A stretch of DNA of 64,000 nucleotides from Dehalococcoidia bacterium (GTDB lineage: Bacteria; Chloroflexota; Dehalococcoidia; Lucifugimonadales; UBA3495). The notes beneath the pieces were generated by a model. It ran no database searches. It was not told where the DNA came from and worked only from the letters and a program-made list of their open reading frames with translations. The DNA lies in the NCBI GenBank assembly GCA_965207865.1, contig CBDBNP010000006.1, positions 843,147-907,146 on the forward strand. The letters are read 5' to 3'. Within the stretch, counting starts at the first letter, position 1, and each line of letters opens with the position of its first letter. Below, piece after piece: positions 39,727 to 63,140 of this stretch. The translations under genes and the position numbers were made by a program.

Positions 39727-40809
39727 CTAGCGCAGGGCCGGGGCGACTTCGGTGGCGAAGCGCTTTACCGATGCCAGTACCTTCTCCTTGGCGATGCCTC
39801 CGCCCACGTTGACTTCGGCCACCACGCCCGACAGTCCCTGCTCCTCGATGATGTCGCGCAGCAGGCGCGATACGGTCTCGGGGTTGCCGTAGGCCAGCCG
39901 GTCACGCAGCAGGTCCTCGTAGGTGATCGACGAAAGCTGGTGGCCGCGCTGGACGCGCTCCTCGCTGGGAGTGGCACCGGCCACGGCGGCGCTGTTCAGA
40001 AAGTTCTGGGCCAGCCGCCTGTAGGCCCGCATTGTGGACTCCTCGGCGTCGGCATAGGCCTGTTCATCGGTCTCGCCGACATACACAGGGAGGCGCAGGA
40101 AGACGCTGGTATCCGCCTTGTGGCCGGCATCCTTCCAGGCGGCCCGGTACTCGTTCAGGCTGGCGGCGAGGGTCGGCCGGTCCATTCCCCTCAGTCCGAC
40201 GAAGACCGGTAGGCCCTGACGGCCCACCTGGGGGAACGTCTCCTTTGTCGTGGCGGCAATGCGCAGGGGCGGATGGGGTTTCTGGTACGGCTTGGGGATC
40301 ACGCACACGTCGTTGAACTGGTAGTACTTGCCCTCGTAGGAGAACCGCTCGTTGGACCAGGCGGCCAGGATGATCTCGAGGGATTCCTGGAAACGCTCGC
40401 GGCTCTCGGCGTAGGAGATGCCGTAGCCCTCGTAAGCGCGGGCAAAGCCGCTGCGGCCCACGCCGAACTCCACCCGGCCATGGCTGATCTGGTCTACGGT
40501 GGCGACCTCCTCGGCCAGCCGGATGGGGTGCGCCAGCGGCAGCACGTTTACCGCCACACCCACGCGGAGGCTCTGGTACCGGGCAACGATGGCAGATGAA
40601 ATGATCAGTGGCGCGGAGACCACCGAGGGTATGCCGGCGCCCATGGTGTCCAGCGGACTGCGCGGCGCGGCGAAGTGCCGTTCCGCCAGCCACACGCCGT
40701 CCAGTCCGCCCATCTCGGCGGCCTCGGCCATGGCAAACGCCTCATCGAACGCGGCCTCCTCGGTCTCGCCGTAGCGGTAGTCGCATTCCATCACCAGTCC
40801 GACGTGCAT
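39727..40809 (-). CDS. LLM-class flavin-dependent oxidoreductase (paralog 1 of a tandem pair)
   Basis: 360 aa: MHVGLVMECDYRYGETEEAAFDEAF..AEAAEMGGLDGVWLAERHF......, LLM pattern. Collinear and highly similar to 40981..42063. Confidence 0.85.
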   Translation of the reverse strand: MHVGLVMECDYRYGETEEAAFDEAFAMAEAAEMGGLDGVWLAERHFAAPRSPLDTMGAGIPSVVSAPLIISSAIVARYQSLRVGVAVNVLPLAHPIRLAEEVATVDQISHGRVEFGVGRSGFARAYEGYGISYAESRERFQESLEIILAAWSNERFSYEGKYYQFNDVCVIPKPYQKPHPPLRIAATTKETFPQVGRQGLPVFVGLRGMDRPTLAASLNEYRAAWKDAGHKADTSVFLRLPVYVGETDEQAYADAEESTMRAYRRLAQNFLNSAAVAGATPSEERVQRGHQLSSITYEDLLRDRLAYGNPETVSRLLRDIIEEQGLSGVVAEVNVGGGIAKEKVLASVKRFATEVAPALR

Positions 40810-40845
40810 GCACCCTCTCCTGATATGGCCGCAGTATCAGTCTCG

Positions 40846-40874
40846 ATTCTAGGTTGCCCCCTATGCAGTGTCAA
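40846..40874 (-). promoter_or_regulatory. near-consensus sigma70-type promoter for LLM paralog 1
   Basis: Minus strand TTGACA (rc of 40869-40874), 17 nt, TAGAAT (rc of 40846-40851), ~37 nt upstream of ATG 40809. Confidence 0.5.
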
Positions 40875-40890
40875 ACCTGCCGGGCGTAGG

Positions 40891-40973
40891 TTCACCACAG
40901 AGCACACGAAGCACAGGGAGGTTAATTCAGACCCAAGAAAGAGATCTCTGAGCCCCCGTGTTATCCGTGGTTG
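40891..40973. repeat. family-A repeat, degenerate copy
   Basis: TTCACCACAGAGCACACGAAGCACAGGGAGG...CTCTGAGCCCCCGTGTTATCCGTGGTTGA between the two LLM paralogs. Confidence 0.6.
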
Positions 40974-40980
40974 ATGGCCG

Positions 40981-42063
40981 CTAGCGCAGGTTGGGGGCCA
41001 CTTCTGAGGTGAACCGTTTGACCGATGCGAGGACCTTGTCTTTGGAGATGCCGCCGCCGACATTCACCTCGGCGATCACGCCATCCAGCCCCAATTCCTC
41101 GATGATCTCGCGCAGCAGCTTGGTGACGGTGTCAGGATTGCCGTAGGCAAGGCGATCTCGCAGTAGTTCCCTGTACGTGATGTTGGAAATTTGCTGGGCC
41201 CGCCGGACACCTTCCTCGTCGGGTGTTGCTCCGGCAACGGTGGCGCTGATTAGGAAACTCTGGCCCAGGCGGCGGAAGGCCTGCATGGTGGAGTTCTCAG
41301 CCTCGGCGAAAGCCTGCTCGTCGGTCTCGCCCACGTATACGGGTATACGCAGATAGACGCTGTCATCGCCCTTGTGGCCGGCGTCCTTCCTCGCTGCGCG
41401 GTACTCGCCCAGGCATTCGGCCAGCTCGGGGCGGTCGAGACCGCGGAGGCCTACGAACACCGGCAGACCAGAGCGCCCCACCTGGGGGAAGGTCGGTTTC
41501 GTGGTGGCTGCAACACGCAGCGGCGGATGCGGCTTCTGGAAGGGCTTGGGGACGACGCAGACCTCGTCGAACTTGTAGTACTTGCCCTCATATGAGAACC
41601 GCTCATTGGTCCAAACGGCCAGGATGACGTCGAGACATTCCTGGAACCGCTCACGGCTCTCCGCGTAGGAGATGCCGTAACAATCATAGGCCCGGTGAAA
41701 GCCGCTGCGACCAACGCCGAACTCCACGCGCCCCTGGCTGATGTGGTCGATGGTAGCGACCTCCTCCGCCATCCGGATGGGGTGAGCCAGGGGGAGCACG
41801 TTCACCGCGACCCCAACGCGCAGGTGCTGGTACCGGGCCACGATGGCAGTGGACATGATCAGCGGCGCAGACACCACCGACGGTATGCCAAATCCGCCGG
41901 TGTCCAGCGCGTTGACCGGAGCGGCAAAGTGCCGCTCCGACAGCCAGACGCCGTCCAGCCCGCCCATCTCGGCGGCATCTGCCGTGGCGAAGGCCTCGTC
42001 AAAAGCGGCCTGCTCGGTCTCTCCGTAGCGGTAGTCGCATTCCATCACGAGGCCGATGTGCAT
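40981..42063 (-). CDS. LLM-class flavin-dependent oxidoreductase (paralog 2)
   Basis: 360 aa: MHIGLVMECDYRYGETEQAAFDEAFATADAAEMGGLDGVWLSERHF... Same length as paralog 1, with most positions identical or conservative by eye. Confidence 0.85.
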   Translation of the reverse strand: MHIGLVMECDYRYGETEQAAFDEAFATADAAEMGGLDGVWLSERHFAAPVNALDTGGFGIPSVVSAPLIMSTAIVARYQHLRVGVAVNVLPLAHPIRMAEEVATIDHISQGRVEFGVGRSGFHRAYDCYGISYAESRERFQECLDVILAVWTNERFSYEGKYYKFDEVCVVPKPFQKPHPPLRVAATTKPTFPQVGRSGLPVFVGLRGLDRPELAECLGEYRAARKDAGHKGDDSVYLRIPVYVGETDEQAFAEAENSTMQAFRRLGQSFLISATVAGATPDEEGVRRAQQISNITYRELLRDRLAYGNPDTVTKLLREIIEELGLDGVIAEVNVGGGISKDKVLASVKRFTSEVAPNLR

Positions 42064-42852: not shown

Positions 42853-43236
42853 CTACGGCTGGTAATTCTTTGAGACCTCGGCGTTGAAGAACATCGGATC
42901 GTGCCAGTAGCATCCTACGCAGGTGCCATTGTATTTGCTGTGTCCCCTGACCTGGCTCACCGAGTAGCCGAGGCGCATGGCGTCGAATCGGTTGCCGGTG
43001 TCGCGGCACTCGCGGCAGTGCTGTCGCTTTGCGTCGTTGGCACTCCGGGAAAGGGGCTGGAAATCTTCAATCACGACTTTGGTGGCGTCGCTCAGACGGG
43101 GGTCGTCGAGACGACCGTCCTTGTGGTCGCACTGGGGAGACCCCGTTGCTAATATCACGCAACGACCCGCCGTAACCTCTCTTCGAATGCCTTCAGGGAT
43201 GGGCTTCTGGATGGCGACCTTTTTGAACCCCTCCAA
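42853..43236 (-). CDS. small HNH (beta-beta-alpha-Me) nuclease, probable type II restriction endonuclease
   Basis: 127 aa (TTG start). Pattern C-x9-CDHKDG...(26)...SRSANDAKRQHCRECR is a Cys-flanked H-N-(N/K) finger. Directly downstream of a DNA methyltransferase on the same strand. Confidence 0.6.
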   Translation of the reverse strand: MEGFKKVAIQKPIPEGIRREVTAGRCVILATGSPQCDHKDGRLDDPRLSDATKVVIEDFQPLSRSANDAKRQHCRECRDTGNRFDAMRLGYSVSQVRGHSKYNGTCVGCYWHDPMFFNAEVSKNYQP

Positions 43237-43468
43237 CTGAACATGAGTTATCTTGCCCCTGCCCGCAGGATGTCGCAGGATGTTGTAGTGTTTCGCTAGG
43301 GACCCGTCTTGACGAATCCAGTCTCCACCGTTACCAAATTGGAGTTTCGCATACCGACCGACGAACTAGGATATGGATACACAACGACTAAACCCGAGAT
43401 TGTCGGGCTGCGCCAGTTCAAGGAAAAGAGCCGCCTTGCTCCCTGCCCTGAGACCATCGATAACAGAG

Positions 43469-44260
43469 TTACTGGACAAGGGTCACCCGCTGTCGGGAGA
43501 TCTCGACGTAGCGCTCGTCAATGTCGCAGCCGGCGAACGCGCGGCCGTTTTTCAGTGCAGCCATGGCGGTGGTTCCGGCGCCAAGGAACGGGTCGACCAC
43601 GAGGTCGCCTGGGTTGCTGTGCTTGATCACGAGATCGGAAAACAACTTCTCAGGTTTCTGCGTGGGGTGTTGTCGATTCCCGTTGTGGCGAGGGATGGGG
43701 TATTCGTAGATCCCCGGGTCGTCCCTGTAAATTCCGGAGTCGTAGGAACTGTTGAATGTGGGCTTGCCGACCTTGACACCCGAAACCGCCATCTCACGGC
43801 AGTTTGACAGGTAGGTGGCCCGCATGTTCAGGGGGACAGGGTTGGTCTTTTCCCAGATGATTTGCCGGATCATCTTGAACCCTGCCTTTTCCATTGCGTC
43901 CTTGACCAGGCCGATTTTCCAAAGGTCGTACCAGACTATGGCCGTGCCGCCTCGGCGCAGCGCTCGGTAAAAGACCTCTGCCATCACCTCAAGGTCTATC
44001 TGGCAGTGGTCCCACTCGCCGAAATCCATTGACACAGCGAATCGCTGCACGCCGTTCACCACGGACTTGAACCCGGTCTCCCTGCTGATGGTGTAGGGTG
44101 GATCGGTCAGGATCAGGTCGACCGATCCTTTGGGCAGCGAGTCCATGAACTCGCTGAAGTCGGCGACCTCAATCCTTGGAGATGGCAGGGCAGTCTCGTG
44201 GGTTACGCCGCCCCGGTCGGCAGCGGCGGTCTCTTCCTGTTTACGTTGTCGTGCAGACAT
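43469..44260 (-). CDS. beta-class DNA methyltransferase (N6-adenine or N4-cytosine)
   Basis: Motif IV ILTDPPY precedes motif I VVDPFLGAGTTAMAA (circularly permuted beta order). HPTQKPEKL conserved. ATG 44260; the ORF opens at TTG 44299. Confidence 0.85.
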   Translation of the reverse strand: MSARQRKQEETAAADRGGVTHETALPSPRIEVADFSEFMDSLPKGSVDLILTDPPYTISRETGFKSVVNGVQRFAVSMDFGEWDHCQIDLEVMAEVFYRALRRGGTAIVWYDLWKIGLVKDAMEKAGFKMIRQIIWEKTNPVPLNMRATYLSNCREMAVSGVKVGKPTFNSSYDSGIYRDDPGIYEYPIPRHNGNRQHPTQKPEKLFSDLVIKHSNPGDLVVDPFLGAGTTAMAALKNGRAFAGCDIDERYVEISRQRVTLVQ

Positions 44261-44336
44261 TATGTCAGTCAGAATACGTGGTGCTCCGGAGGCCGTCAAC
44301 GGCCAGAAGTCATCTACGCCGTGCTAGAATCGAGCC

Positions 44337-45165: not shown

Positions 45166-46362
45166 ATGCCATTCGTGCTGTCCCAGTTCGGGCTGCCCGA
45201 TGCCCCCTGGGTTGACCCGGTCCTTTCGATCGCCGTGGTGGTCATCTCCATGCTGGTGGCCGCCTTGGTTCACTTCGCCATGTTTCCATTGGTGACCCGG
45301 CTGACCCACCACACTCCAACCGAGCTCGACGACGTTATCATCCGGGCAGTGAGACTGCCCATCAATGTGGCCATCGTGGTGCTGGGCGTCTACCTGAGCC
45401 TGACGCTAACCCTCGACCTGCCCGCCGGCGTTCAGCATGCCATTGACCTTGGGGCCCGGGCCCTTGGCGTGCTGCTATTCGTCGTCCTGGTGGGACGTGT
45501 CTTTTCCCGTGTCATGGACTGGGCCATCGCGGAGCAGGACAAGAGGGAGCATCACACCGTGGACACCCGCCTGCTGCTGATGCTGCGGCGGGTGCTGGTG
45601 GGCCTGATATACGCCCTGGGACTGCTGCTGGTGATCAACACCCTCGGCATACCAATCAGCCCGCTCATCGCCGGACTGGGCCTGGGTGGCGTGGCAGTGG
45701 CCTTGGCGATACAGCCGACGCTGTCGAACCTCTTTGCCGGCACATACGTGATGACCGAGGGGGTCGTATCGCCGGGGGACTACATCGAGATGGAAGGAGG
45801 AGTCGCCGGATACGTGCTGGAGGTGGGATGGCGCAGCACCCGTCTGCGCACCTGGGGCAACAACCTGGTGGTGGTTCCCAACGCACGGTTCGCCGAAACC
45901 ATCATCACCAACTACTACGAGCCCACGCCGCCGGTGAATGTCTACCTGACCTGCGGAGTCAGCTATGACAGCGATTTGGCCCGGGTCGAGGCGGTGTCCA
46001 TGGACGTGATGAATGAGGTGCTGGAGTCCAGCCCGCACGGAGTGCGGGAGTACGGGGCCTACTTTGGGTTCGAGAATTTCGGGGAGTCCAACGTCGATTT
46101 CTGGCTGTTCGTGCAGGCCAGGGACCGGCTGGCCAGCTTCGAACTTCGATCGGAGCTGATAAACGAACTCCACCGGCGTTTCGACGAGGAGGGCATCGTG
46201 ATCAACTACCCGGTGCGCGCCATCCAGTTTCCCGGCGATACCCCACCCGACGCTGACCGCCGACATAGCGAAAGGATGCCGGAGTTCGCCCGCCGTCCTC
46301 CGCCCGCGGACACGCCCAATGTCGATGCAGGGGGTGGAGACGGCCCCGACGGCCCAGCCTAG
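45166..46362 (+). CDS. mechanosensitive ion channel (MscS) family protein
   Basis: 398 aa, N-terminal TM helices. Pore-helix and beta-domain signature GLGGVAVALAIQPTLSNLFAGTYVMTEGVVSPGDYIEMEGGVAGYVLEVGWRSTRLRTWGNNLVVVPN. Confidence 0.85.
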   Translation: MPFVLSQFGLPDAPWVDPVLSIAVVVISMLVAALVHFAMFPLVTRLTHHTPTELDDVIIRAVRLPINVAIVVLGVYLSLTLTLDLPAGVQHAIDLGARALGVLLFVVLVGRVFSRVMDWAIAEQDKREHHTVDTRLLLMLRRVLVGLIYALGLLLVINTLGIPISPLIAGLGLGGVAVALAIQPTLSNLFAGTYVMTEGVVSPGDYIEMEGGVAGYVLEVGWRSTRLRTWGNNLVVVPNARFAETIITNYYEPTPPVNVYLTCGVSYDSDLARVEAVSMDVMNEVLESSPHGVREYGAYFGFENFGESNVDFWLFVQARDRLASFELRSELINELHRRFDEEGIVINYPVRAIQFPGDTPPDADRRHSERMPEFARRPPPADTPNVDAGGGDGPDGPA

Positions 46363-46468: not shown

Positions 46469-46545
46469 GGGCCTGTAGCTCAGGCGGTTAGAGCGCGGTC
46501 CTGATAAGACCGAGGTCGATGGTTCGAGTCCATCCAGGCCCACCA
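46469..46545 (+). tRNA. tRNA-Ile (anticodon GAU)
   Basis: Manual cloverleaf: acceptor GGGCCTG/CAGGCCC, D arm GCTC-AGGCGGTTA-GAGC, anticodon arm CGGTC-CTGATAA-GACCG, variable AGGTC, T arm GATGG-TTCGAGT-CCATC, A, encoded CCA. 77 nt. Stand-alone, not in an rRNA operon. Confidence 0.92.
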
Positions 46546-46879
46546 AGCTGGATAAAATCAAGAACTTTCACGTTGAGGCTCGTCTTGAGCCTGTAGAAAC
46601 AGACCCTTCGTTGCATCAAGCTCCACCTTTGGAGTTCCACCTCCAGGGTCATTCGATTATCCAAGCACAAGGCGCGGCCTTTGCCGGAAGCCCCCTCTCT
46701 CACCTTACGCCCTTCCTTTGGCAGGCTAAGGATGAGCGAACTCCCGGAGACGCCTACGATAATCGAAAGACCCTGGTTCCACCTCTCAGAGAAGTTGACC
46801 ATTGGACTGTTGGGCTGCCATACTAAATTTGGGGTTCGCCCAGGATACTCTCCGACTCCAGCCTGAGAGATAATACAAC

Positions 46880-47737
46880 ATGCCATACACGGCGGATATC
46901 AGTAGAAACAACCCCGGTTGCTTCCTCTTTCTGATTGATCAGTCGGGGTCGATGGCGGATGCGCTGGGTGGTCAGCCGGAGTTGCGCAAAAAGGACGGCG
47001 CGGCCGATGCCGTGAACCGCATCCTCGACGCCATCTCCCAACGCTGCTCGCAGGGCATGGACGTTCGCGACTACTTCCATGTCGGCGTAATCACATACCA
47101 CACGGACTCCTCGGGAATGCCGGATGTGCAGACCGCCCTTCCAGGGACCTCTCCGAAGGAACCCTTCCTCCCCATCAGCCAGGTTGTCGACGCCGCCATC
47201 GTGGAGGACAGGGAAGTGAAGGAGTCGGACGGCGCGGGCGGCCTGGTGGAAGTGCCCCGGAAGTTTCCGGTGTGGCTGCGCCCGGAAGCGAAGTACGGTA
47301 CGCCAATGTGCGCGGCGTTGTCCACCGCTTCCCATGCGCTCCACGACTGGATACTCGATCACCCCAGTTCCTATCCCCCTATGGTAATCAGCGTCACCGA
47401 CGGTGCCGCTACGGACGGGAATCCGGTGGCCTTAGCCGAAGAGATCATGGACATGGGAACCGAAGACGGCAACGTGCTGATCTACAACGCCCATCTTTCG
47501 GAAATGTCCGCGATGCCGGTGCAGTACCCGTCCGACGAGAGCCAAGTGCCTCCCGATGAGTACGCGGCGCAAATGTTCCGCATGTCTTCCGAATTTCCCG
47601 ACCCGGTGGTGACCCTGGCCACTGCCATGGGCCTGCCGGTCACCCAGGGATCACGCGGCTACGTCTACAATGCCGACATGGTGGCCCTGGTGCAGTTCCT
47701 GGACATAGGTACGCGCGCCGCTTCGGACCTGCACTGA
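46880..47737 (+). CDS. von Willebrand factor A (vWA) domain protein, TerY/YegL-like
   Basis: 285 aa. MIDAS motif FLFLIDQSGSM (D-x-S-x-S), downstream VISVTDGAATDG. First gene of a tightly spaced three-gene unit. Confidence 0.8.
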   Translation: MPYTADISRNNPGCFLFLIDQSGSMADALGGQPELRKKDGAADAVNRILDAISQRCSQGMDVRDYFHVGVITYHTDSSGMPDVQTALPGTSPKEPFLPISQVVDAAIVEDREVKESDGAGGLVEVPRKFPVWLRPEAKYGTPMCAALSTASHALHDWILDHPSSYPPMVISVTDGAATDGNPVALAEEIMDMGTEDGNVLIYNAHLSEMSAMPVQYPSDESQVPPDEYAAQMFRMSSEFPDPVVTLATAMGLPVTQGSRGYVYNADMVALVQFLDIGTRAASDLH

Positions 47738-47753
47738 TCGGTTAGAGGGTGAG

Positions 47754-48527
47754 GTGTACCTTCGACCTCCCACAGAGTTCTGGCTGCCCAAGGCGGGCAA
47801 CGACCCGGAGGAGTACGAGGACGCTTTCCGCGTCGTGTGCCCTCCGCAAGTTGGAGCATCCGGGCTTGGCGCGGCGCGAATAGCCGTCTCCGACGGCGCC
47901 AGCGAGTCCTCGTTTGCCCGCGAATGGGCGAACTTCCTGACAGATGCCTTTGTGACCCAGCCCCCGGCGTCATGCGGTCTGACTGAGGATTCCCTAAACA
48001 CATGGCTGAAGTCCCCGCAGGAAAGATGGCATGCTTCCGTGCCATGGGACCGCCTGCCTTGGCACGGAGAGACCAAGACACAGGCAGGGTCTTTAGCGAC
48101 TCTCTTGGGACTAGCCGTCAAGGCTGCGCCGGACAACTCCGGGCAACTTTCCTGGCAGGCGCTGGCAGTGGGGGATAGTTGTCTCTTTATCGTTCGCGAC
48201 AACCGGCTGTGGCTGTCCTTTCCCCTGGAAAACTCCGCCCAGTTCGATAACAACCCCGCCCTGCTCTGCAGCAATCCTGATAACTCCGGGAACATGTGGG
48301 AAGGGATACACCAGCGCAGCGGGGAATGCGCGACGGGCGACCTTCTCATTCTCGCTACCGACGCCCTGGCCTGCTGGATCCTCGCCGAGAATGCTGCAGA
48401 AGAGAGGCCATGGGAGACGCTCCTAGGATTGGACTCGTCGGAGTGGGAAACTTGGGTCGGGGAGCAGCGGCAGGGTGGGTTCATGCGGAACGACGACACG
48501 ACGTTGGTCATCATCCAGGTTATGTAG
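47754..48527 (+). CDS. PP2C-family Ser/Thr phosphatase-like protein
   Basis: 257 aa. EDAF, AVSDGASES, AVGDSCLF and NDDTTLV match the metal-binding Asp motifs of bacterial PP2C/SpoIIE-type domains. 16-nt gap after the vWA gene. Confidence 0.7.
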   Translation: MYLRPPTEFWLPKAGNDPEEYEDAFRVVCPPQVGASGLGAARIAVSDGASESSFAREWANFLTDAFVTQPPASCGLTEDSLNTWLKSPQERWHASVPWDRLPWHGETKTQAGSLATLLGLAVKAAPDNSGQLSWQALAVGDSCLFIVRDNRLWLSFPLENSAQFDNNPALLCSNPDNSGNMWEGIHQRSGECATGDLLILATDALACWILAENAAEERPWETLLGLDSSEWETWVGEQRQGGFMRNDDTTLVIIQVM

Positions 48528-48550
48528 GACCATGAGGTGAAACGAGAGCC

Positions 48551-49828
48551 ATGCCCTGGCCCGGGATAACCGACTATAGCGAGGCTATCCAGAACCCCCA
48601 GCTTTGCTTCAAGGGCACCGGACTCGCGTCCGGTTCGACGTTGGTCAATCAACGTCTTATGCCGCTGGTGTTCTCCGGCGCCTTCGCTTGCGTCTACCCC
48701 ATGGAGGTGGGTGGCAGCAAATACGCGGTGCGCTGTTTCACCCGCGAAATTAAAGACCAGCAGACCCATTACAACCATCTGAGCGAATATCTCATCAATG
48801 TCCTCCCCCCATCCTTTGTGCATTTCGAGTACCTGGAAAATGGGATTAACCTGAAGGGTATTTGGTATCCGATTGTCAGGATGGAGTGGGTAGAAGGAGA
48901 GTCGTTGAGCAGCTTCGTAGGCTCCCATCTCAACGACCCCGACGCCTTACGCCGAGTCGCGGCCCAGTGGCGCGGGGGCCCGGCAGCCAGTCTGCGGGGG
49001 CTGGGTATCGCCCACAACGACCTGCAACACGGCAACGTTATGGTGCAGGCGGACGAGAGAATCCGTCTGGTGGACTACGACGGCATGTTCCTGCCCCGAT
49101 TTCGCGGGGAGCGCAGCCCTGAACTGGGCCACAAGAACTTCCAACACCCTTTCAGGACGGCCGAAGACTACGACGACTACGTGGACAACTTCCCGTCCCT
49201 GGTAGTCTACCTCAGCCTACTGGCTATAGCCTCCGCCCCCAACCTGTGGGCCTTCTTCAACGACGACAACCTGATCTTCACCAGGAGCGACTACACTGCC
49301 CCCGGGAAATCCCCGCTATTCGACCTACTGAAGAAGTCGCCTGACCAGACCGTGGCGAAACTGGCGGAGTGCCTGGAGGAGTGCTGCACGCTTCCCGTGG
49401 AGAAGGTGCCGGACCTGGAGAGCATCCTGCAGAGCATCCCTCCCATCCCTGCGTCCTTGCCCTCAGCGTCGTCGTCAGCTCTTCCGCCATCAGCAGCGCC
49501 CGCGGTTCCTTCGTCCTCAACCCCGCCGAGCGCGGCCCCACAGGGATATCGGCAGATGCTCCTCCGTGCTCGACAGCCAGCGCAGCCCGCCTCACTTTCG
49601 ACACAATCCCATCCTCCCACGACGAATGCTACCAGTCCTGTATCGGCGGCGCAACCCGCTCCGGCACCGACGACTCAAGCCACCGCCAACCCCCCTGGGG
49701 TGGGCTCGCGCAGGGCCGCTCCCGGAGAGATCAGGAAGGTGCTGCTGGGAGTGACGGTCACTGTTGCGGTGGTCACAATGGCTCTCGCGGCAACGATAGT
49801 CTGGGCCATCTCGGTGCGAGGATGGTAG
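48551..49828 (+). CDS. atypical Ser/Thr protein kinase-like protein with Pro/Ser-rich linker and C-terminal TM anchor
   Basis: 425 aa. Catalytic-loop-like IAHNDLQHGNVMV and DFG-equivalent LVDYDGMF. The beta-3 position reads YAVRCF (Arg where Lys is canonical). The C-terminal VLLGVTVTVAVVTMALAATIVWAI is a TM helix. Confidence 0.7.
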   Translation: MPWPGITDYSEAIQNPQLCFKGTGLASGSTLVNQRLMPLVFSGAFACVYPMEVGGSKYAVRCFTREIKDQQTHYNHLSEYLINVLPPSFVHFEYLENGINLKGIWYPIVRMEWVEGESLSSFVGSHLNDPDALRRVAAQWRGGPAASLRGLGIAHNDLQHGNVMVQADERIRLVDYDGMFLPRFRGERSPELGHKNFQHPFRTAEDYDDYVDNFPSLVVYLSLLAIASAPNLWAFFNDDNLIFTRSDYTAPGKSPLFDLLKKSPDQTVAKLAECLEECCTLPVEKVPDLESILQSIPPIPASLPSASSSALPPSAAPAVPSSSTPPSAAPQGYRQMLLRARQPAQPASLSTQSHPPTTNATSPVSAAQPAPAPTTQATANPPGVGSRRAAPGEIRKVLLGVTVTVAVVTMALAATIVWAISVRGW

Positions 49829-49834
49829 TACGAA

Positions 49835-50617
49835 CTATGGCCTTCCACGGGCCAGGAGATGCGGAACGATCCCCGTGACCAGGACGATAGCGCCTGTACC
49901 GGAGAAGACGCTGGCCACGGCACCAAGGAAGAGGAACGAGCCAATTATCCCAACGACGACAAACGCCAACGAGAGCCAGTTGATCCAGCCATAACCCGGC
50001 TTGGCCCACCCCACACGGTCGGCCCAACCGAACAATGTGCCGCGGATCCCACGCCCCCGGAGCAAGAGTGTGATGAGGGAGCACACCAAGAGTAGAACAC
50101 CGATCTTCGCGACTTCGTCCATCGCCGACGTTATCCCCTGGACTTCGAACTCGTGGTCGACGAAGAGCAGGGAGACCAGGATGCGGGGAAACGCGCCAGC
50201 GGCGAACACGACCAACCCGGCCGCCGCCGTGCCCAGCGCCAGCTTTCCCGGCGGCCTCATCCTGCTGGTCGCTATCGGCGCGCCGGCCAGTCCCAGCAGT
50301 TCGAGCACGAGGCGCACGCAAAAAATGCTGATTCCCACGACAATGTTGCAACTGCCAAGAACCGCCAAGAGCTCTATGCTCGTTCGAGGTTCATCCGAGG
50401 GAAGAAACTGCCGGTCTTCCGGCGCTCCCTGCAGTTCAATGAGTGGGGTTATTGCCTGGGTGTGCAGAATGCCTCCGGCCATCGGACTCAATACAATCAG
50501 AAAGACACCGGCCGCCATCACGCCCAGTGCCACCTTGTAGGCCACACCCCAGTCTGCGAGGGTAGTACGGATCCTCGGAAAGCTGGTTTGAGGGACGTTC
50601 CTGTAGGACACACCCAC
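49835..50617 (-). CDS. polytopic membrane protein, unknown function
   Basis: 260 aa with ~6 hydrophobic segments. Convergent with the kinase gene (6-nt gap between stops). No recognisable motif. Confidence 0.6.
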   Translation of the reverse strand: MGVSYRNVPQTSFPRIRTTLADWGVAYKVALGVMAAGVFLIVLSPMAGGILHTQAITPLIELQGAPEDRQFLPSDEPRTSIELLAVLGSCNIVVGISIFCVRLVLELLGLAGAPIATSRMRPPGKLALGTAAAGLVVFAAGAFPRILVSLLFVDHEFEVQGITSAMDEVAKIGVLLLVCSLITLLLRGRGIRGTLFGWADRVGWAKPGYGWINWLSLAFVVVGIIGSFLFLGAVASVFSGTGAIVLVTGIVPHLLARGRP

Positions 50618-50757
50618 GCCTCCTGTCTCGCGCCGGACTTTGGTCCTTGAAGGCCGGGGCTTAGCTCGACCGGCACACGGCGGTTATCGCCGGTTGCCGC
50701 GGCCTCCTCTCCGTGAAGGAGACACTTCTGAAACTGCTTCGGCTTCTGGGCCGCGTT

Positions 50758-51321
50758 TCAGCGGTTGAGCCACCCGTATGCCAGAAGGGCTACGCTGCCC
50801 CCGAAGAGCACGATGCCCGGCAACATGACCATGGCCCCGCCGGCCCCAAAGATGATCTGCAGGAAAAGGGCGAGGACAAGCAGGAGTGCCCCGATCACCA
50901 CCCCCGCCAGTCCCATCCTGTTCGTCCAGCGCCACCTGACGGTCACGACCCTGTACCTCTGTATAATGCTTCGCGCCGCGCCAATAGCCGCAGCGCGTCG
51001 GCGGGATTCCATAAACAGGAGTGCCCCGAGCCCGCTCAGAAGCAGCACCCCACCCATTGCCCTGATCGTCGCGCCGAAGCCCACACCGTAATCGTCTTGG
51101 AGAACTATCCCGAACACGACCAAGACGATTCCACTTGCCACCCCGGAGGCTCCCAGCATATCGGCAGGACTTGCCTCTCGGATCCCCCTGAGCAACTTAG
51201 GCACACCGGTCCTCAATAAAGACATGTCTGCTCCTGACTCTGGAGGGATTCCAAGTGCAATCGCCGAATACCATACACGCTTGCTCCCTGGTATTGTGTC
51301 TTGAACCAAGATTTCCCACAT
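50758..51321 (-). CDS. membrane protein, unknown function
   Basis: 187-aa ORF. ~4 TM segments in the C-terminal 150 aa. The start may be the internal ATG at 51225, because GC drops sharply upstream of it. Confidence 0.55.
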   Translation of the reverse strand: MWEILVQDTIPGSKRVWYSAIALGIPPESGADMSLLRTGVPKLLRGIREASPADMLGASGVASGIVLVVFGIVLQDDYGVGFGATIRAMGGVLLLSGLGALLFMESRRRAAAIGAARSIIQRYRVVTVRWRWTNRMGLAGVVIGALLLVLALFLQIIFGAGGAMVMLPGIVLFGGSVALLAYGWLNR

Positions 51322-51506
51322 TGGAAGTCTTTAAGCTCAAAGGGCAGTCCAAAGGAGATCATAGCATTATAGCCAGGTACTGTAAGCCCGAATCCACCGA
51401 AAGGTTGAGGATTGAGGGGTGTGCTGAATTGGTCAAAAATGCCGGACCGATTCTTACACACCCCTGGTCTCTCAGCGCAAATCTCTCCCGCCAGACCTCT
51501 CCCTGT

Positions 51507-51642
51507 CAGGACGATTGCAAAGTCGTTGTCTGGATCAGGATTTCCAGCATTATAGAATTCTCAGGATAAATGTCCTAATCCTGCACATCTTTCAATCCTG
51601 ATTCAGACAATTGCGATGGACAACAACTTTGCAATCGTCCTG
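51507..51642. repeat. 136-bp imperfect long inverted repeat (nested arms) in an ORF-free low-GC region
   Basis: Outer arms CAGGACGATTGCAAAGTCGTTGTC (51507-51530) and GACAACAACTTTGCAATCGTCCTG (51619-51642), 23/24 complementary. Inner arms TGGATCAGGATT / AATCCTGATTCA, 11/12. Confidence 0.8.
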
Positions 51643-52244
51643 ATGGGTGGGGGTTGTAAAGTGCACTGGTTGTAGATATAGTCCTCTGAGCCACCAACCC
51701 AGGTAAACCTGACGTCCCCATCTGTGAGAATCACCATACTGGCCCATCCCCCGGCCCTTCATCCCCAGTCTTTCACCCCAACCCTTTCTCTATCGGTGGA
51801 TTTGGGATAGGACATCCTGATTTGCCGACTTTTTCAACACTCCCGTCTCTGTAAATCGATAGTATTAGGAAGGACTTCCACTCTCGGGGTCTTCCAACTT
51901 CCTCGCGTATACGAGGGTTTACCCTCGCAACCCAGTGGTCTTAATAGCGCCGGTCGCCATACCTTTCCTCCAGGCGCTTTTTCCAGCCGTCTGCAGCAAC
52001 AAACCTGCACAAATCCTATCCATACCCTAAGTCTGGCTATATCCTATCCATTTCCTATCTATACCCTAGCCGCGTTTGGTTTATTTCCTATTTGTCTTCC
52101 CTTATCTTAATCATTAGACAACAGAGGGCAATTGGGAACATCTTCCTTTGCTCATCTGCTCATCAATTAGGATATAGATTGGATAAAGTGTATCGAATTG
52201 GGATAAGCAGAGCAGCAGCAACCGGTTCGCATCCGGCGCCATGG

Positions 52245-53551: not shown

Positions 53552-55431
53552 CTAGAAATCTGGCCGGAAAGTGGCGGTGGCCGGGCTGGCGGGTATAGTG
53601 GTGTCAACAAGCATGACGAGGGCTGAGAATGCTGGGAGAGCGTTCGGACCAGAGGGGTCTTTGGGAAGCAGACCGGCTGTATCTGGACCACGTGGGGCGG
53701 GATACCTTCTACGGTCTGCTGGCCTCGCTGCGGGGCCGGCTGTTCCGGGACGCGGATTTCGCCGAGTTCTACTGCGCCGACAACGGCCGGGACAGCGTGC
53801 CGCCCAGTCTGCTGGCCACTGCCCTGCTGCTGCAGGCCCACGACAAGGTGAGCGACGCCGAGGCCAAGGCCCGGGCCGACTTCGACATCCGCTGGAAGGT
53901 GGCGTTGGGGATTGAGGTCGAGGACAGGCCCTTCGCCAAGAGCACGTTGCAGGTATTCCGCGCCCAGTTGATCCTGCACGACAAGGTGCGGGAGGTATTC
54001 GAGTCCAGCCTGCGGCTGGCCCGTGAGGCTGGTTACCTGAAGCGGGGTCGTGGTATGCGGGTGGCGCTGGACACCACATACATTCTGGGACGCGGCGCGG
54101 TCAAGGACACCTACAATCTATTGGGCGACGGTATCGCGAAGCTGATGCGGGCACTGACATCGGTGGAAGGAGTTCCCCTGCGGCAATGGGCTGAGGCCCA
54201 CGGCTACGACCGTTACGTGGGCAGCAGCGTGAAGGGTGAAGCGGCCATTGACTGGTCGGATCGACAGGCGCGGCGGGAGCTGCTCGGAGAGATCGTGGCC
54301 GATGCCGACCAGCTTTTGGAACTGGCCCGGCTGGACCAGGCTGGGCTGCCTGCGGACAGCGTCGAGCGGCAAGCGATAGTTGAGGCGGCGGAGCTGCTGG
54401 GCCGGTTGCTGCTCCAGGACGTGAAGCGCGGGGTGGACGGCGCTGGCGATGCTGACGCTGACAGCGAGGTGAGCCTCAGTGGGGTGAGCAAGGACCGGAT
54501 GGTGTCGGTGCATGATCCGGATATGCGCCACGGGCATAAGAGCAAGCAGCGTCGCTTTGACGGGCACAAGGCCGCCGTGGTGGTGGACACCGACACCCAG
54601 TTGATCACCGCGGTGGACGTGCTGGCGGGCAACGCTTGGGACAGCGTGGGCGCCCTGGAACTGGTGGAGCAGAGCGAGGCCAGCGCGGGCGTGCCAGTGG
54701 TGGAAGCCATGGGCGACACGGCCTACGGCGATGGAGGCACCCGTCAGGAGTTCGCCGATGCGGGCCGCAAGCTGGTAGCTCGGGTGCCTGGCCGCCCGGA
54801 CCGGCAGCGCTTTCCCAAGGATGACTTTGTCATTGACCTGGCGGCGGGCAGTTGCACCTGTCCGGCGGGGCAGGTCACCCACAAAATCGTGCCGGCGGGA
54901 AAGCGGACTGATGCCGCGGGACGGGTCCACCACCTGCGGGCATTCCAGTTCGACGGGTCCGAATGCATGAGCTGTCCACTGCGGTCCCAGTGCATCTCGG
55001 CCAAAGGCAGGAAGGGACGATGGGTGCTGATCCATCCCCAGGAAGCCCTGCTGCAGAAGGCCCGGGCCCTGCAACAGAGCGCTGCCTACGACGAATATCG
55101 AGGACGGCGAGTGGTGGTGGAACACAGATTGGCCCGGCTGGTCCATCTGGGCATCCGCCAGTCCCGCTATTTTGGTAGAGCCAAGACTAAATTCCAGCTG
55201 TATCTGGCGGCCACGGTGGCCAACCTGACCCTGGTGGCGGGGAAGGCCAGCCTGACAGGGGGCACCGGCGGCAGTTGCAGTGTCGGCAGCTCACTGCGCA
55301 TAAAGGCCATCCGTTCCGCTTATGACTTCGTCCCCGCACGGCTCGGTCAAGTCACGCCCCTGGCCCTGCTTGCGTTGGCCTCACTGCCGAAATTCATCTC
55401 CCCAAACAAGGCTTTCCGGCCAGATTTCTAG
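53552..55431 (+). mobile_element. intact IS1182/IS5-type insertion sequence (1880 bp) with 20-bp perfect terminal inverted repeats
   Basis: CTAGAAATCTGGCCGGAAAG at 53552-53571 and its exact reverse complement at 55412-55431. The outer CTAG could instead be a 4-bp target duplication with 16-bp IRs. The transposase stop lies inside the right IR. Confidence 0.85.
53629..55431 (+). CDS. IS1182/IS5-family DDE transposase
   Basis: 600 aa. N-terminal DUF772-like module (FYC.DNGRDSVPPSLLATALLLQAHDKVSDAEA......D.RWK.ALG), D..MRHGHKS, AMGDTAYG, Cys cluster C.CP...C..CPLRSQC, C-terminal RVVVEHRLARL...G.RQSRY.G..K...Q......V.NL. Confidence 0.85.
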   Translation: MLGERSDQRGLWEADRLYLDHVGRDTFYGLLASLRGRLFRDADFAEFYCADNGRDSVPPSLLATALLLQAHDKVSDAEAKARADFDIRWKVALGIEVEDRPFAKSTLQVFRAQLILHDKVREVFESSLRLAREAGYLKRGRGMRVALDTTYILGRGAVKDTYNLLGDGIAKLMRALTSVEGVPLRQWAEAHGYDRYVGSSVKGEAAIDWSDRQARRELLGEIVADADQLLELARLDQAGLPADSVERQAIVEAAELLGRLLLQDVKRGVDGAGDADADSEVSLSGVSKDRMVSVHDPDMRHGHKSKQRRFDGHKAAVVVDTDTQLITAVDVLAGNAWDSVGALELVEQSEASAGVPVVEAMGDTAYGDGGTRQEFADAGRKLVARVPGRPDRQRFPKDDFVIDLAAGSCTCPAGQVTHKIVPAGKRTDAAGRVHHLRAFQFDGSECMSCPLRSQCISAKGRKGRWVLIHPQEALLQKARALQQSAAYDEYRGRRVVVEHRLARLVHLGIRQSRYFGRAKTKFQLYLAATVANLTLVAGKASLTGGTGGSCSVGSSLRIKAIRSAYDFVPARLGQVTPLALLALASLPKFISPNKAFRPDF

Positions 55432-57388: not shown

Positions 57389-57838
57389 ATGTACGAGCAG
57401 AAGGAAAACGGGTTCGACCAGTTGATCGAGTCAATCGGCGGCTATAACCGCAGAACCATAGGTATCATCTTTGCTGCCGGAATTATCACCGGAACAGTCG
57501 GGGGGGCAATAGTCGGATTCATGTTCCTTATACTGTTGGTCTTCATTGCGGTCCTGGTAGCAGTCATCGTGCTGATCGCACGCGCACGGCGAAGGGACAC
57601 AGCCTCCAGCGAAGCAATCCAGCAGCCTGTCCAGCCGGTCAGGAATCCAACGCCGCCGCCGGCCGCGAGACCAACTCACGTTCCGGCACTGGAACGCCGC
57701 ATCCTCACAATAGTGAACAGCGGCAACGAAAATCTATCGGCCAGCGCCCTAGCCGAGGAATTTCAGGTGTCAACAGATTTCGTCCGCGAGACGGTCCAGA
57801 ATATGGCCGATCGCGGCCTTTTCAATTTGGAAGAGTGA
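57389..57838 (+). CDS. membrane-anchored protein with C-terminal winged-helix-like domain
   Basis: 149 aa from ATG 57389. TM IGIIFAAGIITGTVGGAIVGFMFLILLVFIAVLVAVIVLIA, Pro-rich linker, then LERRILTIVNSGNENLSASALAEEFQVSTDFVRETVQNMADRGL (MarR/TrmB-like HTH pattern). Confidence 0.55.
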   Translation: MYEQKENGFDQLIESIGGYNRRTIGIIFAAGIITGTVGGAIVGFMFLILLVFIAVLVAVIVLIARARRRDTASSEAIQQPVQPVRNPTPPPAARPTHVPALERRILTIVNSGNENLSASALAEEFQVSTDFVRETVQNMADRGLFNLEE

Positions 57839-57878
57839 AGCCAGGTCCATGATGGAGAAATGGCGCAAGACTCTCTGA

Positions 57879-58053
57879 GAGCCGCCGGGCGATGTGCCCG
57901 GTGTAAGCATCCAGCTTCTTTCCCCGCGGCTGGGGCCGGATCGCCTCAGGCGACCTCAGATAGCGCGATACCGTGTTCCGGGCAAGACCCAATTTCCGAT
58001 CGATCGCCCGAGCCGATTGGCCCCCCTCCCTTCGCCTCGTCAATCTCTTTCAC
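57879..58053 (-). pseudogene. IS21-family IstA transposase N-terminal HTH remnant (frameshifted, truncated)
   Basis: Minus strand: VKEIDEAK then, after a shift in a G-run, REGGQSARAIDRKLGLARNTVSRYLRSPEAIRPQPRGKKLDAYTGHIARRL. This parallels IstA N-termini (I..L...G.S.R.IA..LG.SRNTV.KYL......P....R..SKLDP....I...L). Nothing of the DDE domain follows. Confidence 0.6.
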
Positions 58054-58221
58054 CTGTCCACATCTTAGCAAATTGTCCAATGCACCCCCGCAGATTCTCC
58101 GCAGATGAGGCACTCGCTATCGGGGGGCTTATTTCTATTTCGTAACTAACACATTGGAGGAGGTCTCGAAGAGCCCGTGTCAAGAATCAACCCGAATCCG
58201 CCAATAGCAACTCTATCTCGA

Positions 58222-59979
58222 ATGTCAAGAGGAATGACCGGTCAAAGCGGTAGGTCTACCAGACTGGCGAGACGGCTTGCCCTGCTGGGTGTTGTTCTTA
58301 CGCTGGCGCTGTCGGCAATCCTCATGGCCTGCGGCGGCGACTCCACCGAATCCGGCGGGGAGGATCGGCCCCCCACTCGGTCGCAGCCTGCCGACGCGGG
58401 GGAGTCCCCCGGAGAGGCGGAACCCAACGGCCCGCCAGTCACCCCCCTCGCCGAACCAGAGGGCACCCAAGAGGCTAACCCCGAACCCACGCGCCAAGGA
58501 ATCTTCGGCGCCGGCAGCCAGTCCACCGCCGGGCCGGAGGCCACCGATGAGCCGACGGCTACCAGACGCCCCCTGCTGACCTTTGGGCCGACATCGGCAG
58601 CAACGGACCGGGAGGCGCTGGTTGCCCTCTACAACGCAACGGACGGTCCGAACTGGGACGACGATGTCAACTGGCTGAGCGACGCGCCCCTGAACGAATG
58701 GTATGGCGTCACCACCAACGACGACGGGCGCGTTACGGAGCTGGACCCCGACTTTAACGAGTTGAGCGGGGAGATACCGCCGGAGCTGGGCAGCCTTGCC
58801 AACCTGGAAAGGCTGTACCTTGACGGGAACGGGTTGAGCGGTGAGATACCGCCGGAGTTGGGCAGCCTCGCCAATCTGACAGGGTTGAGCCTCAGCGGGA
58901 ACGAGTTGAGTGGTGAGATACCGTCGGAGTCGGGCAGCCTCGCCAATCTGACAGGGTTGAGCCTCAGCGGGAACGAGTTGAGCGGTGAGATACCCCCGGA
59001 GTTGGGCAACCTCGCCAACCTGACACGGCTGAGCCTCGAAGGGAACGAGTTGAGCGGAGAGATACCGCCGGAGCTGGGCAACCTCACCAGCCTGACAAGT
59101 CTGTTCCTCTACGAGAACGAGTTGAGCGGGGAGATACCGCCGGAGCTGGGCGGCCTCGCCAACCTGGAAAGGCTGATCATCCACGGAAACGAGTTGAGCG
59201 GGGAGATACCGCCAGAACTGGGCAGCCTCGCCAACCTGACACGGCTGCGGCTCGACGACAACCAGTTGAGCGGTGAGATACCCCCGGAGTTGGGCGGCCT
59301 CGCCGGCCTGGAAGAGCTGAGACTCTACGACAACCAGTTGAGCGGTGAGATACCCCTGGAGTTGGGCAACCTCGCCAATCTGCAAGGGCTGAGCCTCAGC
59401 GGGAACGGGTTGAGCGGTGAGATACCCCCGGAGTTGGGCAACCTCGCCAACCTGACATGGCTGAGCCTCAGCGGGAACGAGTTGAGCGGTGAGATACCGT
59501 CAGAGCTGAGCAACCTCGCCAACCTGGAATCGCTTTGGCTCAGAGAAAATCAGTTGAGCGAGATACCGCCGGAGTTGGGCAGCCTCGCCAACCTGGAAAA
59601 GCTGAGACTCGAAACGAACCAGTTGAGCGAGATACCGCCGGAGTTGGGCAGCCTCGCCAACCTGGAATCGCTGCACCTCAGTGGGAACCAGTTGAGCGAG
59701 ATACCGCCGGAACTGGGCAGCCTCGCCAACCTGACAGTGCTGGACCTCAGTGGGAACCAGTTGAGCGAGATACCTCCGGAACTGGGCAGCCTCGCCAACC
59801 TGATATTTCTGTCCCTCCGCGATAACCAGTTGAGCGAGATACCTCCGGAACTGGGCAACCTTGCCAACCTGGAAGCCCTGGACATCTTCGGGAACCAGTT
59901 GAGCGGTTGCGTGCCAAGCAGCCTGGCAGGCCAGTTGGATCTTCACCGCTCTTACCTTGACGACCTGCCCTTCTGCTGA
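58222..59979 (+). CDS. leucine-rich repeat lipoprotein (about 17 24-residue LSGEIPPELG-type repeats, then five or six 23-residue LSEIPPELG repeats)
   Basis: ATG 58222 (MSRGMTGQSGRSTRLARRLALLGVVLTLALSAILMAC, lipobox LMAC). Low-complexity linker, cap DREALVALYNATDGPNWDDDVNWLSDAPLNEWYGVTTNDDGRVTEL, then the LRR array. Confidence 0.85.
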   Translation: MSRGMTGQSGRSTRLARRLALLGVVLTLALSAILMACGGDSTESGGEDRPPTRSQPADAGESPGEAEPNGPPVTPLAEPEGTQEANPEPTRQGIFGAGSQSTAGPEATDEPTATRRPLLTFGPTSAATDREALVALYNATDGPNWDDDVNWLSDAPLNEWYGVTTNDDGRVTELDPDFNELSGEIPPELGSLANLERLYLDGNGLSGEIPPELGSLANLTGLSLSGNELSGEIPSESGSLANLTGLSLSGNELSGEIPPELGNLANLTRLSLEGNELSGEIPPELGNLTSLTSLFLYENELSGEIPPELGGLANLERLIIHGNELSGEIPPELGSLANLTRLRLDDNQLSGEIPPELGGLAGLEELRLYDNQLSGEIPLELGNLANLQGLSLSGNGLSGEIPPELGNLANLTWLSLSGNELSGEIPSELSNLANLESLWLRENQLSEIPPELGSLANLEKLRLETNQLSEIPPELGSLANLESLHLSGNQLSEIPPELGSLANLTVLDLSGNQLSEIPPELGSLANLIFLSLRDNQLSEIPPELGNLANLEALDIFGNQLSGCVPSSLAGQLDLHRSYLDDLPFC

Positions 59980-60078
59980 AGCCAGCAGTTCTCAGCCGGG
60001 GGTGGGCGGCATACCGGCCTTGCAGGCGCTCCCGGCGCGTGTTGGCTATGGCGCAATTGAGACTAGGAGGTAGAGAAA

Positions 60079-62988: not shown

Positions 62989-63140
62989 CCGAGAATACGG
63001 AGCGCCGTCCCAATCTCTGCGGGAGGGGTCGCGCCAGCGCAGCAATAGCCGGCCCGGCGGGGGTCTTCCTCGCGGTTTGCCGCGGGTCGGCCCCCCGCAG
63101 CGTGGCGGGATGACGCCTTCGACAGCGGTGGGAGGTTGCG

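Follow-up and report, generated by a model that had tools for sequence, protein, structure and literature searches.

The window, a 64,000-nucleotide stretch of the genome of a Dehalococcoidia bacterium (contig CBDBNP010000006.1, positions 843,147 to 907,146 of the forward strand), contains a compact group of five genes lying downstream of a tRNA-Ile(GAU) gene and its adjoining leader. Three of these genes are read from the plus strand and encode a vWA protein, a PP2C-like phosphatase and a protein kinase, while the other two converge on them from the minus strand and encode polytopic membrane proteins without a recognizable family, referred to here as TM1 and TM2. In all likelihood the locus is a five-gene, horizontally transferable and membrane-associated variant of TerY-P, which belongs to the defence systems based on Ser/Thr phosphorylation. 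The features of the locus are the following.

46469-46545, plus strand: tRNA-Ile(GAU) (ARAGORN; Rfam, 70.5 bits)
46546-46879, plus strand: leader 5' of the vWA gene, GC 0.52, with a promoter-like site inside it
46880-47737, plus strand: vWA gene, 285 aa, from the list of open reading frames (ORFs)
47754-48527, plus strand: PP2C gene, 257 aa, GTG start
48551-49828, plus strand: kinase gene, 425 aa
49835-50617, minus strand: TM1 gene, 260 aa as listed; probable start at GTG 50611, giving 258 aa
50758-51321, minus strand: TM2 gene, 187 aa as listed; probable start at Met33 (51225), giving 155 aa

The initial annotation of this DNA placed all five ORFs and the tRNA correctly, as well as the gaps of 16 nt between the vWA and PP2C genes, 23 nt between the PP2C and kinase genes, and 6 nt between the kinase stop and the convergent TM1. 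The motifs it quoted are likewise all found in the translations, namely DQSGSM in the vWA protein, EDAF, SDGASES, GDSCLF and NDDTTLV in the phosphatase, and YAVRCF, HNDLQHGN and DYD in the kinase. The starts of both membrane proteins are best revised. TM1 most likely begins at GTG 50611 because an AGGAGG lies 7 nt ahead of it, and TM2 most likely begins at Met33 because the gene call in a sister genome agrees and sequence conservation begins there. A consensus scan alone picks out a promoter-like TTGACC-18-CATACT at 46795-46824 within the leader, and from about 46776 onward the leader travels with the genes, as homology to other genera begins at 46776-46834 and the block is conserved across loci. 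A terminator scan found none between the convergent genes.

On the strength of profile searches the vWA, PP2C and kinase proteins form a triad of the TerY-P family, as the initial annotation had proposed. The PADLOC models for TerY-P (Gao 2020 family) are PDLC02224 for TerY, PDLC02222 for PP2C and PDLC02223 for STK_OB. The vWA protein matches the first at E 1e-84 over profile positions 1-274 of 277, the phosphatase matches the second at E 9.6e-35 over positions 10-239 of 242, and the kinase matches the third at E 1.3e-72 over positions 1-296 of 562 only. The corresponding Pfam scores are all sub-threshold, with 22 bits for VWA_2, 23.1 bits for PP2C_2 (cut-off 24) and 16 bits for Pkinase. The vWA protein carries its DQSGSM as a MIDAS motif and has no predicted transmembrane (TM) segment, consistent with a cytosolic location, and it is 45.6% identical to the TerY of a canonical system on a Calothrix plasmid, the kinase of which covers positions 7-537 of the 562 in the STK_OB profile, OB part included.

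The catalytic motifs of the kinase, with Arg at the beta-3 position, HNDLQHGN in the catalytic loop and DYD in place of DFG, had been described in the initial annotation as atypical. Alignment reveals that AxRCF, AHxDLQHGN and DYD are common to the window kinase and to canonical OB-type TerY-P kinases, and that Arg, HNDLQHGN and LVDYD are conserved in essentially all of the ~120 kinase homologues listed. They are therefore a signature of the family and not a local oddity. An exact-sequence lookup of the window kinase returned no match on record. The accompanying statement that the role of such triads is unknown is outdated, since TerY-P has been reported as a stand-alone anti-phage system acting against T7-like/Autographiviridae phages, with most infected cells surviving in the case of the Pseudomonas aeruginosa system (PMC7699616, PMC11090510, bioRxiv 10.1101/2022.08.12.503731). 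The mechanism is stated in none of these three sources. The first hypothesis, from comparative genomics, was of a metal-sensing phospho-switch, as cited in PMC11090510.

The window kinase departs from the canonical form in its C-terminal half. STK_OB profile positions 297-562, which correspond to the OB part, are unmatched, and the protein consists instead of a core (residues 1-295), a Pro/Ser/Ala linker (~296-388), a basic juxtamembrane stretch and a TM anchor at residues ~398-417 (nt ~49742-49801), with ~8 residues predicted to lie beyond the helix. The initial annotation had recognized both the C-terminal TM helix and the linker, which it put at ~110 aa and which measures ~100 aa. The kinase thus has, in place of the OB-fold region, a flexible linker and one terminal TM helix, which by topology prediction makes it a tail-anchored protein with a cytoplasmic catalytic domain. 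Within the kinase clade the C-terminus takes several further forms, among them three to five TM helices, a TM segment followed by a PD40 beta-propeller (locus L019; labels of this kind denote individual loci), a cadherin-like region, and a second kinase domain with a double zinc ribbon. Evidently this end of the kinase can be exchanged as a module, a role that the membrane proteins probably fill here. Conservation is 0.87 in the core, 0.49 in the linker and 0.64 in the anchor. The value for the anchor is compatible with specific helix packing without proving it, and its use as proof of specific TM-TM contacts was dropped, as it lies only moderately above that of the linker.

Neither of the two convergent membrane proteins matches a family in Pfam, NCBIfam or PADLOC, and both are rare, with homologues in 49 clusters among 5.8 billion for TM1, and 38 representatives among 1.84 billion proteins, with 28 clusters, for TM2. 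Hydropathy and charge distribution predict six TM helices in TM1 with both ends inside, and the invariant Thr117 falls in a basic loop, LTRRMRPPGK, that alignment and topology together place in the cytoplasm. Four TM helices are predicted in TM2, which has a cytoplasmic loop with nine Lys/Arg and a near-invariant Thr95, making Thr117 of TM1 and Thr95 of TM2 candidate phosphorylation sites. The AlphaFold2 models are helical and of limited confidence, with a moderate pLDDT of 68 for TM1 and a low pLDDT of 64 for TM2, and a Foldseek comparison of the TM1 model with the PDB gave no match better than E 0.7. TM2 has also been shortened in this lineage. It stops at a TGA (50684-50760 region), where its relatives run on with a basic tail (…RRNAAQKPKQSSEVSPSRRGGRGNRR), and a remnant of the tail remains readable past the TGA in the window, partly in another frame. 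The window lineage, together with P0208, P0209 and P0216, has therefore lost the basic tail of TM2 by a nonsense mutation and a frameshift.

The association of these membrane proteins with the triad is seen well beyond the window. A scan for kinase relatives, restricted to one genome per species, yielded 29 loci, nearly all from metagenome-assembled genomes (MAGs) of Dehalococcoidia/Chloroflexota, together with two Caldilineaceae and two Acidimicrobiia. Single-anchor kinases make up 20 of the scan loci, and with the sister assembly L030 form a set of 21. Every one of the 21 has TM1 and TM2 in convergent orientation behind the kinase, including the most distant, at 60% kinase identity. In the loci examined TM2 is found with 27 of 27 membrane-embedded kinases and with none of the three others (Fisher p=2.5e-4, the loci being phylogenetically non-independent). 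Approached from TM1, the picture is the same: a triad is adjacent in every context read, and the three most distant homologues, at 37-43% identity, sit convergent to a triad of 285, 257 and 420-531 aa. A PP2C gene accompanies the kinase in every locus examined. All five genes are under purifying selection, with dN/dS of 0.17-0.61 overall, including 0.18-0.28 for vWA, 0.24-0.34 for PP2C, 0.22-0.49 for TM1 and 0.54-0.61 for TM2.

Transfer and fusion tie the genes together further. On two Acidimicrobiia chromosomes, 89% nucleotide homology to the window is confined to 46834-51132, that is, to the five genes, and dS between the window and these copies is 0.17-0.35, far too low for vertical descent between phyla; the transfer is recent. 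In several hosts the module retains a GC of ~0.62-0.64 between flanks of 0.54-0.58, 4-9 GC points above its surroundings. In locus L024 a TM1 homologue is fused in frame to the kinase: it occupies residues ~393-633 of a 636-aa protein and aligns to TM1 columns 9-260 (hhalign probability 99.3%, E 3e-20), and the TM2 gene still lies downstream. TM1 and TM2 are real genes that have been inherited and transferred together with the triad; the suggestions of the initial annotation that the membrane genes belong with the triad and that the unit is mobile both hold. The triad itself is known; what appears to be new is a variant of TerY-P that has an anchored kinase, two orphan partners and, in one genome, a fusion of kinase and TM1.

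Some genomes carry more than one copy. Two five-gene modules with MscS, in opposite orientation and with near-identical protein-level matches to the window, occur in OY759598.1 (L010 at 4.12 Mb and L011 at 3.90 Mb), and several genomes have a second, paralogous triad (L007/L020, L008/L025, L004/L029). In L020 and L025 (10001-11980) the triad has a truncated or frameshifted first kinase and, immediately after it, a second paralogue of 65% identity; TM1 and TM2 are absent.

The tRNA-Ile gene and its surroundings have a history of their own. The initial annotation saw a compositional break directly after the tRNA, which is clear in the intergenic 46546-46879 and at most weak in the five genes, whose GC of 0.616 compares with 0.62 for the window. 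At third codon positions the five genes have a GC of 0.73-0.78 against 0.80-0.87 for most neighbouring genes, 5-10 points lower. Clear drops in GC are limited to intergenic DNA and to 52-58 kb. They include the tract at 51226-52091 after TM2, which had been noted as low in GC and has a value of 0.49. Rfam detected only the tRNA over 46-58.5 kb and nothing in the low-GC tract. Beyond this tract lies a 475-aa protein that had been described as a membrane-tethered winged-helix regulator; it has predicted TM segments, the Pfam, NCBIfam and PADLOC searches gave no match to it, and no winged helix was found by these or by a PDB sequence search. This protein, the low-GC tract, the insertion sequence (IS) and the small ORFs up to 58 kb are found only in the closest relatives and lie outside the conserved unit. 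The description of the region as studded with IS elements was overstated, as there is one intact IS (~53557-55427) and one 194-bp segment seen only in the window, and no repeated IS copies were found. The IS encodes a 600-aa DDE transposase (DDE_Tnp_1_6, DDE_Tnp_1, DUF772) and is absent from the sister loci L001, L002 and L030, which are otherwise 97-99% identical; an overlap of ~5 nt between the alignments on its two sides would fit a target-site duplication. The 194-bp segment (57888-58081) is missing from L001 and L030 and overlaps a 73-aa ORF (57822-58043, minus strand) without a Pfam match.

Upstream of the module, the order Mtase-SIR2-MscS-tRNA-Ile is conserved in many relatives, and it is the DNA downstream of the tRNA that varies, as a comparison proposed in the initial annotation now reveals: L053, L035, L036, L040 and L042 share MscS-tRNA-Ile and differ in what follows. 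In the near-identical strain OZ247426.1 (L036) a tyrosine integrase (Phage_integrase, 1.8e-25) and an IS110 element come directly after an identical tRNA. The triad block of this strain is elsewhere, preceded by only the 10-nt end of the tRNA (AGGCCCACCA), which continues into a leader of the window type, and homology between the window and this sister triad locus begins at 46536, within the last 10 nt of the tRNA. The junction of tRNA and integrase and that of the 10-nt tRNA end and triad are therefore attL/attR-like. As the triad lies across attR from the inserted element, in chromosomal DNA, the window resembles an integration hot spot at tRNA-Ile whose site is empty. The two junctions in OZ247426.1, L036 (4112001-4120000, attL) and L001 (1523184-1544455, attR-like), are 2.6 Mb apart and in opposite orientation, which implies either that an extensive inversion or rearrangement broke within the integrated element or that the assemblies differ. 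L053 (1-7000) has the tRNA together with ~60 nt from the start of the leader, after which other genes stand in place of the module. These encode AbiTii, a Tle1-like phospholipase (DUF2235) and, as judged by translation alone, an IS630-type transposase and a Uma2-like protein, a set that fits a defence or conflict hot spot. L004 and L005 retain a decayed 3' fragment of the tRNA to the left of the module leader.

In the window itself, no integrase or recombinase gene was found between the tRNA (46546) and 58 kb, where the only mobility gene is the DDE transposase of the IS. Nor does the search for a direct repeat of the tRNA 3' end succeed, since within the 64 kb probes of 25 and 18 nt hit the tRNA and no other site, even when 3 mismatches are allowed. 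The 3' flank of tRNA-Ile is thus a variable hot spot and the five-gene cassette is mobile on its own evidence, whereas the window has no delimited island of the integrase type. Of the island reading in the initial annotation, the mobility and the variable tRNA flank stand, while the window shows neither integrase nor att repeat and only a weak shift in composition.

The genes around the module were surveyed through 88 flanking ORFs from 23 loci, in which an MscS-type channel recurs most often and IS110 transposases come second. An MscS gene stands beside the module in at least nine loci (L005, as a fragment, L007, L008, L010, L011, L013-L015 and L032; one of them distant), usually directly after TM2 on the strand of the triad, and in the window it precedes the tRNA at 45166-46362. 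The copies adjoining the module are 37-39% identical to the window MscS, and part of this adjacency could be inherited synteny within Dehalococcoidia. Defence genes are neighbours in a minority of loci, with PDC-M38A/B and AbiLi by the vWA gene in L033, an NgoMIV-type restriction-modification (RM) system in L030, and a few AriA/mad matches. On its own, the context thus argues only weakly for defence, and through MscS a role in membrane stress stays in contention.

Further away in the window are three observations of a different kind. At 42853-44299 a truncated ICEA/NlaIII-like endonuclease ORF (127 aa, profile 112-200 of 218) lies by an N6_N4 DNA methylase shortly before the SIR2-MscS-tRNA-Ile block, apparently the remains of an RM system. 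At 58177-63962 there are three eukaryote-like repeat proteins (LRR, LRR with RCC1, and LRR) encoded in DNA with 72-nt and 111-nt periodic repeats; together with the ankyrin and cadherin proteins of related loci, the LRR/RCC1 genes suggest a host-associated, possibly sponge-symbiont, lifestyle. At 39727-42063 two tandem paralogous luciferase-like monooxygenases (360 aa each, ~74% nt identity) are followed by a PCMT methyltransferase in a housekeeping context.

Taken as a whole, the locus is best explained as a five-gene, membrane-coupled TerY-P phospho-switch, probably serving in defence, a reading that we hold with slightly better than even confidence; the anti-phage role taken by itself, which is carried over by homology from characterized systems, stands at about an even chance. 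In such a switch TM1, TM2 and the kinase anchor would form one complex holding the kinase at the inner face of the membrane, and this complex would replace the OB fold, or the zinc ribbon or beta-propeller of sister variants, as the sensing or targeting module of the kinase. A trigger at the membrane, most plausibly an envelope event induced by a phage, would activate the kinase, which would then phosphorylate cytoplasmic targets; candidates are the vWA protein, proteins of the phage, or the basic loops in TM1 and TM2 that carry the conserved Thr. The PP2C phosphatase would oppose the kinase by keeping the system off or by resetting it, and the MIDAS site of the vWA protein may serve as a metal-dependent binding adaptor. 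TM1 and TM2 could act either as sensors or as executors, and the output, by homology to TerY-P, would be protection against phage. The specific model, in which TM1, TM2 and the tail anchor constitute an undescribed sensor or effector complex substituting for the OB fold, is put forward tentatively and is less likely than not.

Several points weigh against the defensive, membrane-coupled interpretation. The anchor is only moderately conserved, and a helix-helix contact with TM1 or TM2 is putative. TM1 and TM2 have no recognizable fold or motif and their models are of low to moderate quality; nothing points to a pore, a sensor or a substrate. Catalytic activity of the kinase is putative, as Arg replaces the beta-3 Lys. 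The flanks of the module are mostly housekeeping and only weakly defence-like, and no kinase relatives were found in a viral contig collection. The role in defence is itself carried over, by homology, from OB-type systems of Proteobacteria.

Other explanations account for parts of these data. The first doubt concerns whether five genes should be grouped at all, as TM1 and TM2 might be unrelated neighbours of the triad, held adjacent by the shared ancestry of close genomes. The loci do all derive from a small range of MAGs, of Chloroflexota and related groups, which makes the counts non-independent, but the flanks vary from locus to locus while the five genes stay together, the boundaries of the cross-phylum transfer enclose exactly these five, a TM1 is fused to the kinase in L024, and no TM1 or TM2 was seen away from a triad in the contexts read; an adjacency due to ancestry alone is therefore highly improbable. 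The larger grouping of the initial annotation is also unlikely. A classical island integrated at tRNA-Ile, running from the tRNA to ~58 kb and carrying the triad along with the membrane genes and the 475-aa "regulator", would account for the variation downstream of the tRNA among relatives sharing Mtase-SIR2-MscS-tRNA-Ile (L053, and L035 and L036 with an integrase element), for the decayed tRNA fragments in L004 and L005, and for the GC of 0.58 across 52-58 kb. It is contradicted by the missing integrase and missing second tRNA end, by the position of the sister integrase element, which lies between the tRNA and the 10-nt repeat before the triad leader and so leaves the triad outside, and by the sharing of only the five genes, near native in composition, beyond the closest relatives. 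Whether the kinase is a kinase at all can be questioned, since the changes from Lys to Arg at beta-3 and from DFG to DYD could describe a dead scaffold, with the module acting by binding. The confirmed YAVRCF, HNDLQHGN and DYD motifs and the low Pfam Pkinase score would suit such a pseudokinase, but the Asp and Asn of HxDxxxxN and the first Asp of DxD are essentially invariant in the ~120 homologues, canonical OB-type TerY-P kinases have the same substitutions, a dedicated PP2C phosphatase is always encoded alongside, and the more deviant YegI of Escherichia coli (VGDxxQxS, DSD) is active (bioRxiv 10.1101/819920). A catalytically dead kinase accordingly seems a poor prospect.

What the module is for is a separate matter. 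The vWA, PP2C and kinase proteins could regulate membrane physiology through TM1 and TM2, in response to osmotic, mechanical or envelope stress or in symbiosis, their likeness to TerY-P being a matter of ancestry. This would suit the recurrent MscS gene, which in the window stands just upstream of the tRNA, the mostly housekeeping flanks, the several paralogous triads in some genomes, as regulatory modules often show, and the original idea of a metal-sensing phospho-switch, as cited in PMC11090510. Against it, all three soluble proteins score strongly and, apart from the C-terminal half of the kinase, near full length against models of a defence system, the module is patchy and recently transferred between phyla with its own composition kept, some loci adjoin defence genes, and the MscS copies beside the module are only distantly similar to that of the window, and part of the adjacency could be inherited synteny. 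A purely physiological role is thus unlikely, though the likeliest of these alternatives, and the membrane-coupled TerY-P switch is preferred.

The description of this locus gives two protein families that had no context, TM1 and TM2, a genomic setting, documents the recent transfer of a compact five-gene cassette between MAGs of Chloroflexota and Acidimicrobiia, and corrects the idea of the triad as an uncharacterized relative of yegIKL. The exchange of C-terminal modules and the coupling to TM1 and TM2 offer a handle on which part of TerY-P senses or targets. If the proposal is true, the appendage of the TerY-P kinase, whether OB fold, zinc ribbon, beta-propeller or membrane complex, would be a swappable input or targeting module, and the membrane subtype would sense or act on phage at the envelope through phosphorylation of Thr residues in the loops of TM1 and TM2. 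The practical weight of these considerations is limited, the hosts being uncultured and the function inferred.

The locus can be set beside four known systems. The Hanks-type kinases with their partner phosphatases (PknB/PstP, PrkC/PrpC, PpkA/PppA) likewise combine a TM-tethered cytoplasmic kinase with a PP2C, and the L019 variant even has an extracytoplasmic PD40 domain. The window kinase belongs to a different and highly divergent subfamily, as its 16 bits against Pfam Pkinase illustrate, and has only ~8 residues outside the membrane, so that sensing would need separate membrane proteins. In E. coli, yegL-pphC(yegK)-yegI also comprises a vWA protein, a PP2C-like phosphatase and a membrane Ser/Thr kinase, YegI, with non-canonical catalytic and Mg-binding loops (VGDxxQxS, DSD; active, bioRxiv 10.1101/819920), and had been taken in the initial annotation to represent the present triad. 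Homology was rejected here, as BLASTP against E. coli K-12 gave E=13 for the kinase and E=0.34 for the phosphatase, neither significant, and E 4e-4 for the vWA protein around the MIDAS motifs only, and YegL, PphC and YegI match none of the TerY-P models. With no partners equivalent to TM1 and TM2, the E. coli genes are, judged by these comparisons, an architectural analogue and not a representative of the window triad.

The TerY-P units of CoCoNuT Type II and III-A systems (PMC11090510) share with the window the vWA, PP2C and kinase genes and a variable add-on at the kinase C-terminus. In CoCoNuT a zinc ribbon stands where the window kinase has its TM anchor, and the triad shares an operon with CnuB/C/H/E; searches of Pfam, NCBIfam and PADLOC found no McrBC, helicase, HEPN or zinc ribbon domains in the window kinase or its neighbours. 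The stand-alone TerY-P of PADLOC and Gao 2020 differs from the window system in lacking the tail anchor and the two added convergent polytopic membrane proteins, in possessing the OB half of the kinase, and in its distribution, being described from Proteobacteria where the present variant is known in Dehalococcoidia/Chloroflexota MAGs and, by transfer, in Acidimicrobiia. What the two have in common is the same three families in the same order and orientation, tightly packed, with full-length matches for the vWA and PP2C proteins and a single catalytic signature in the kinase, AxRCF, HxDLQHGN and DYD.

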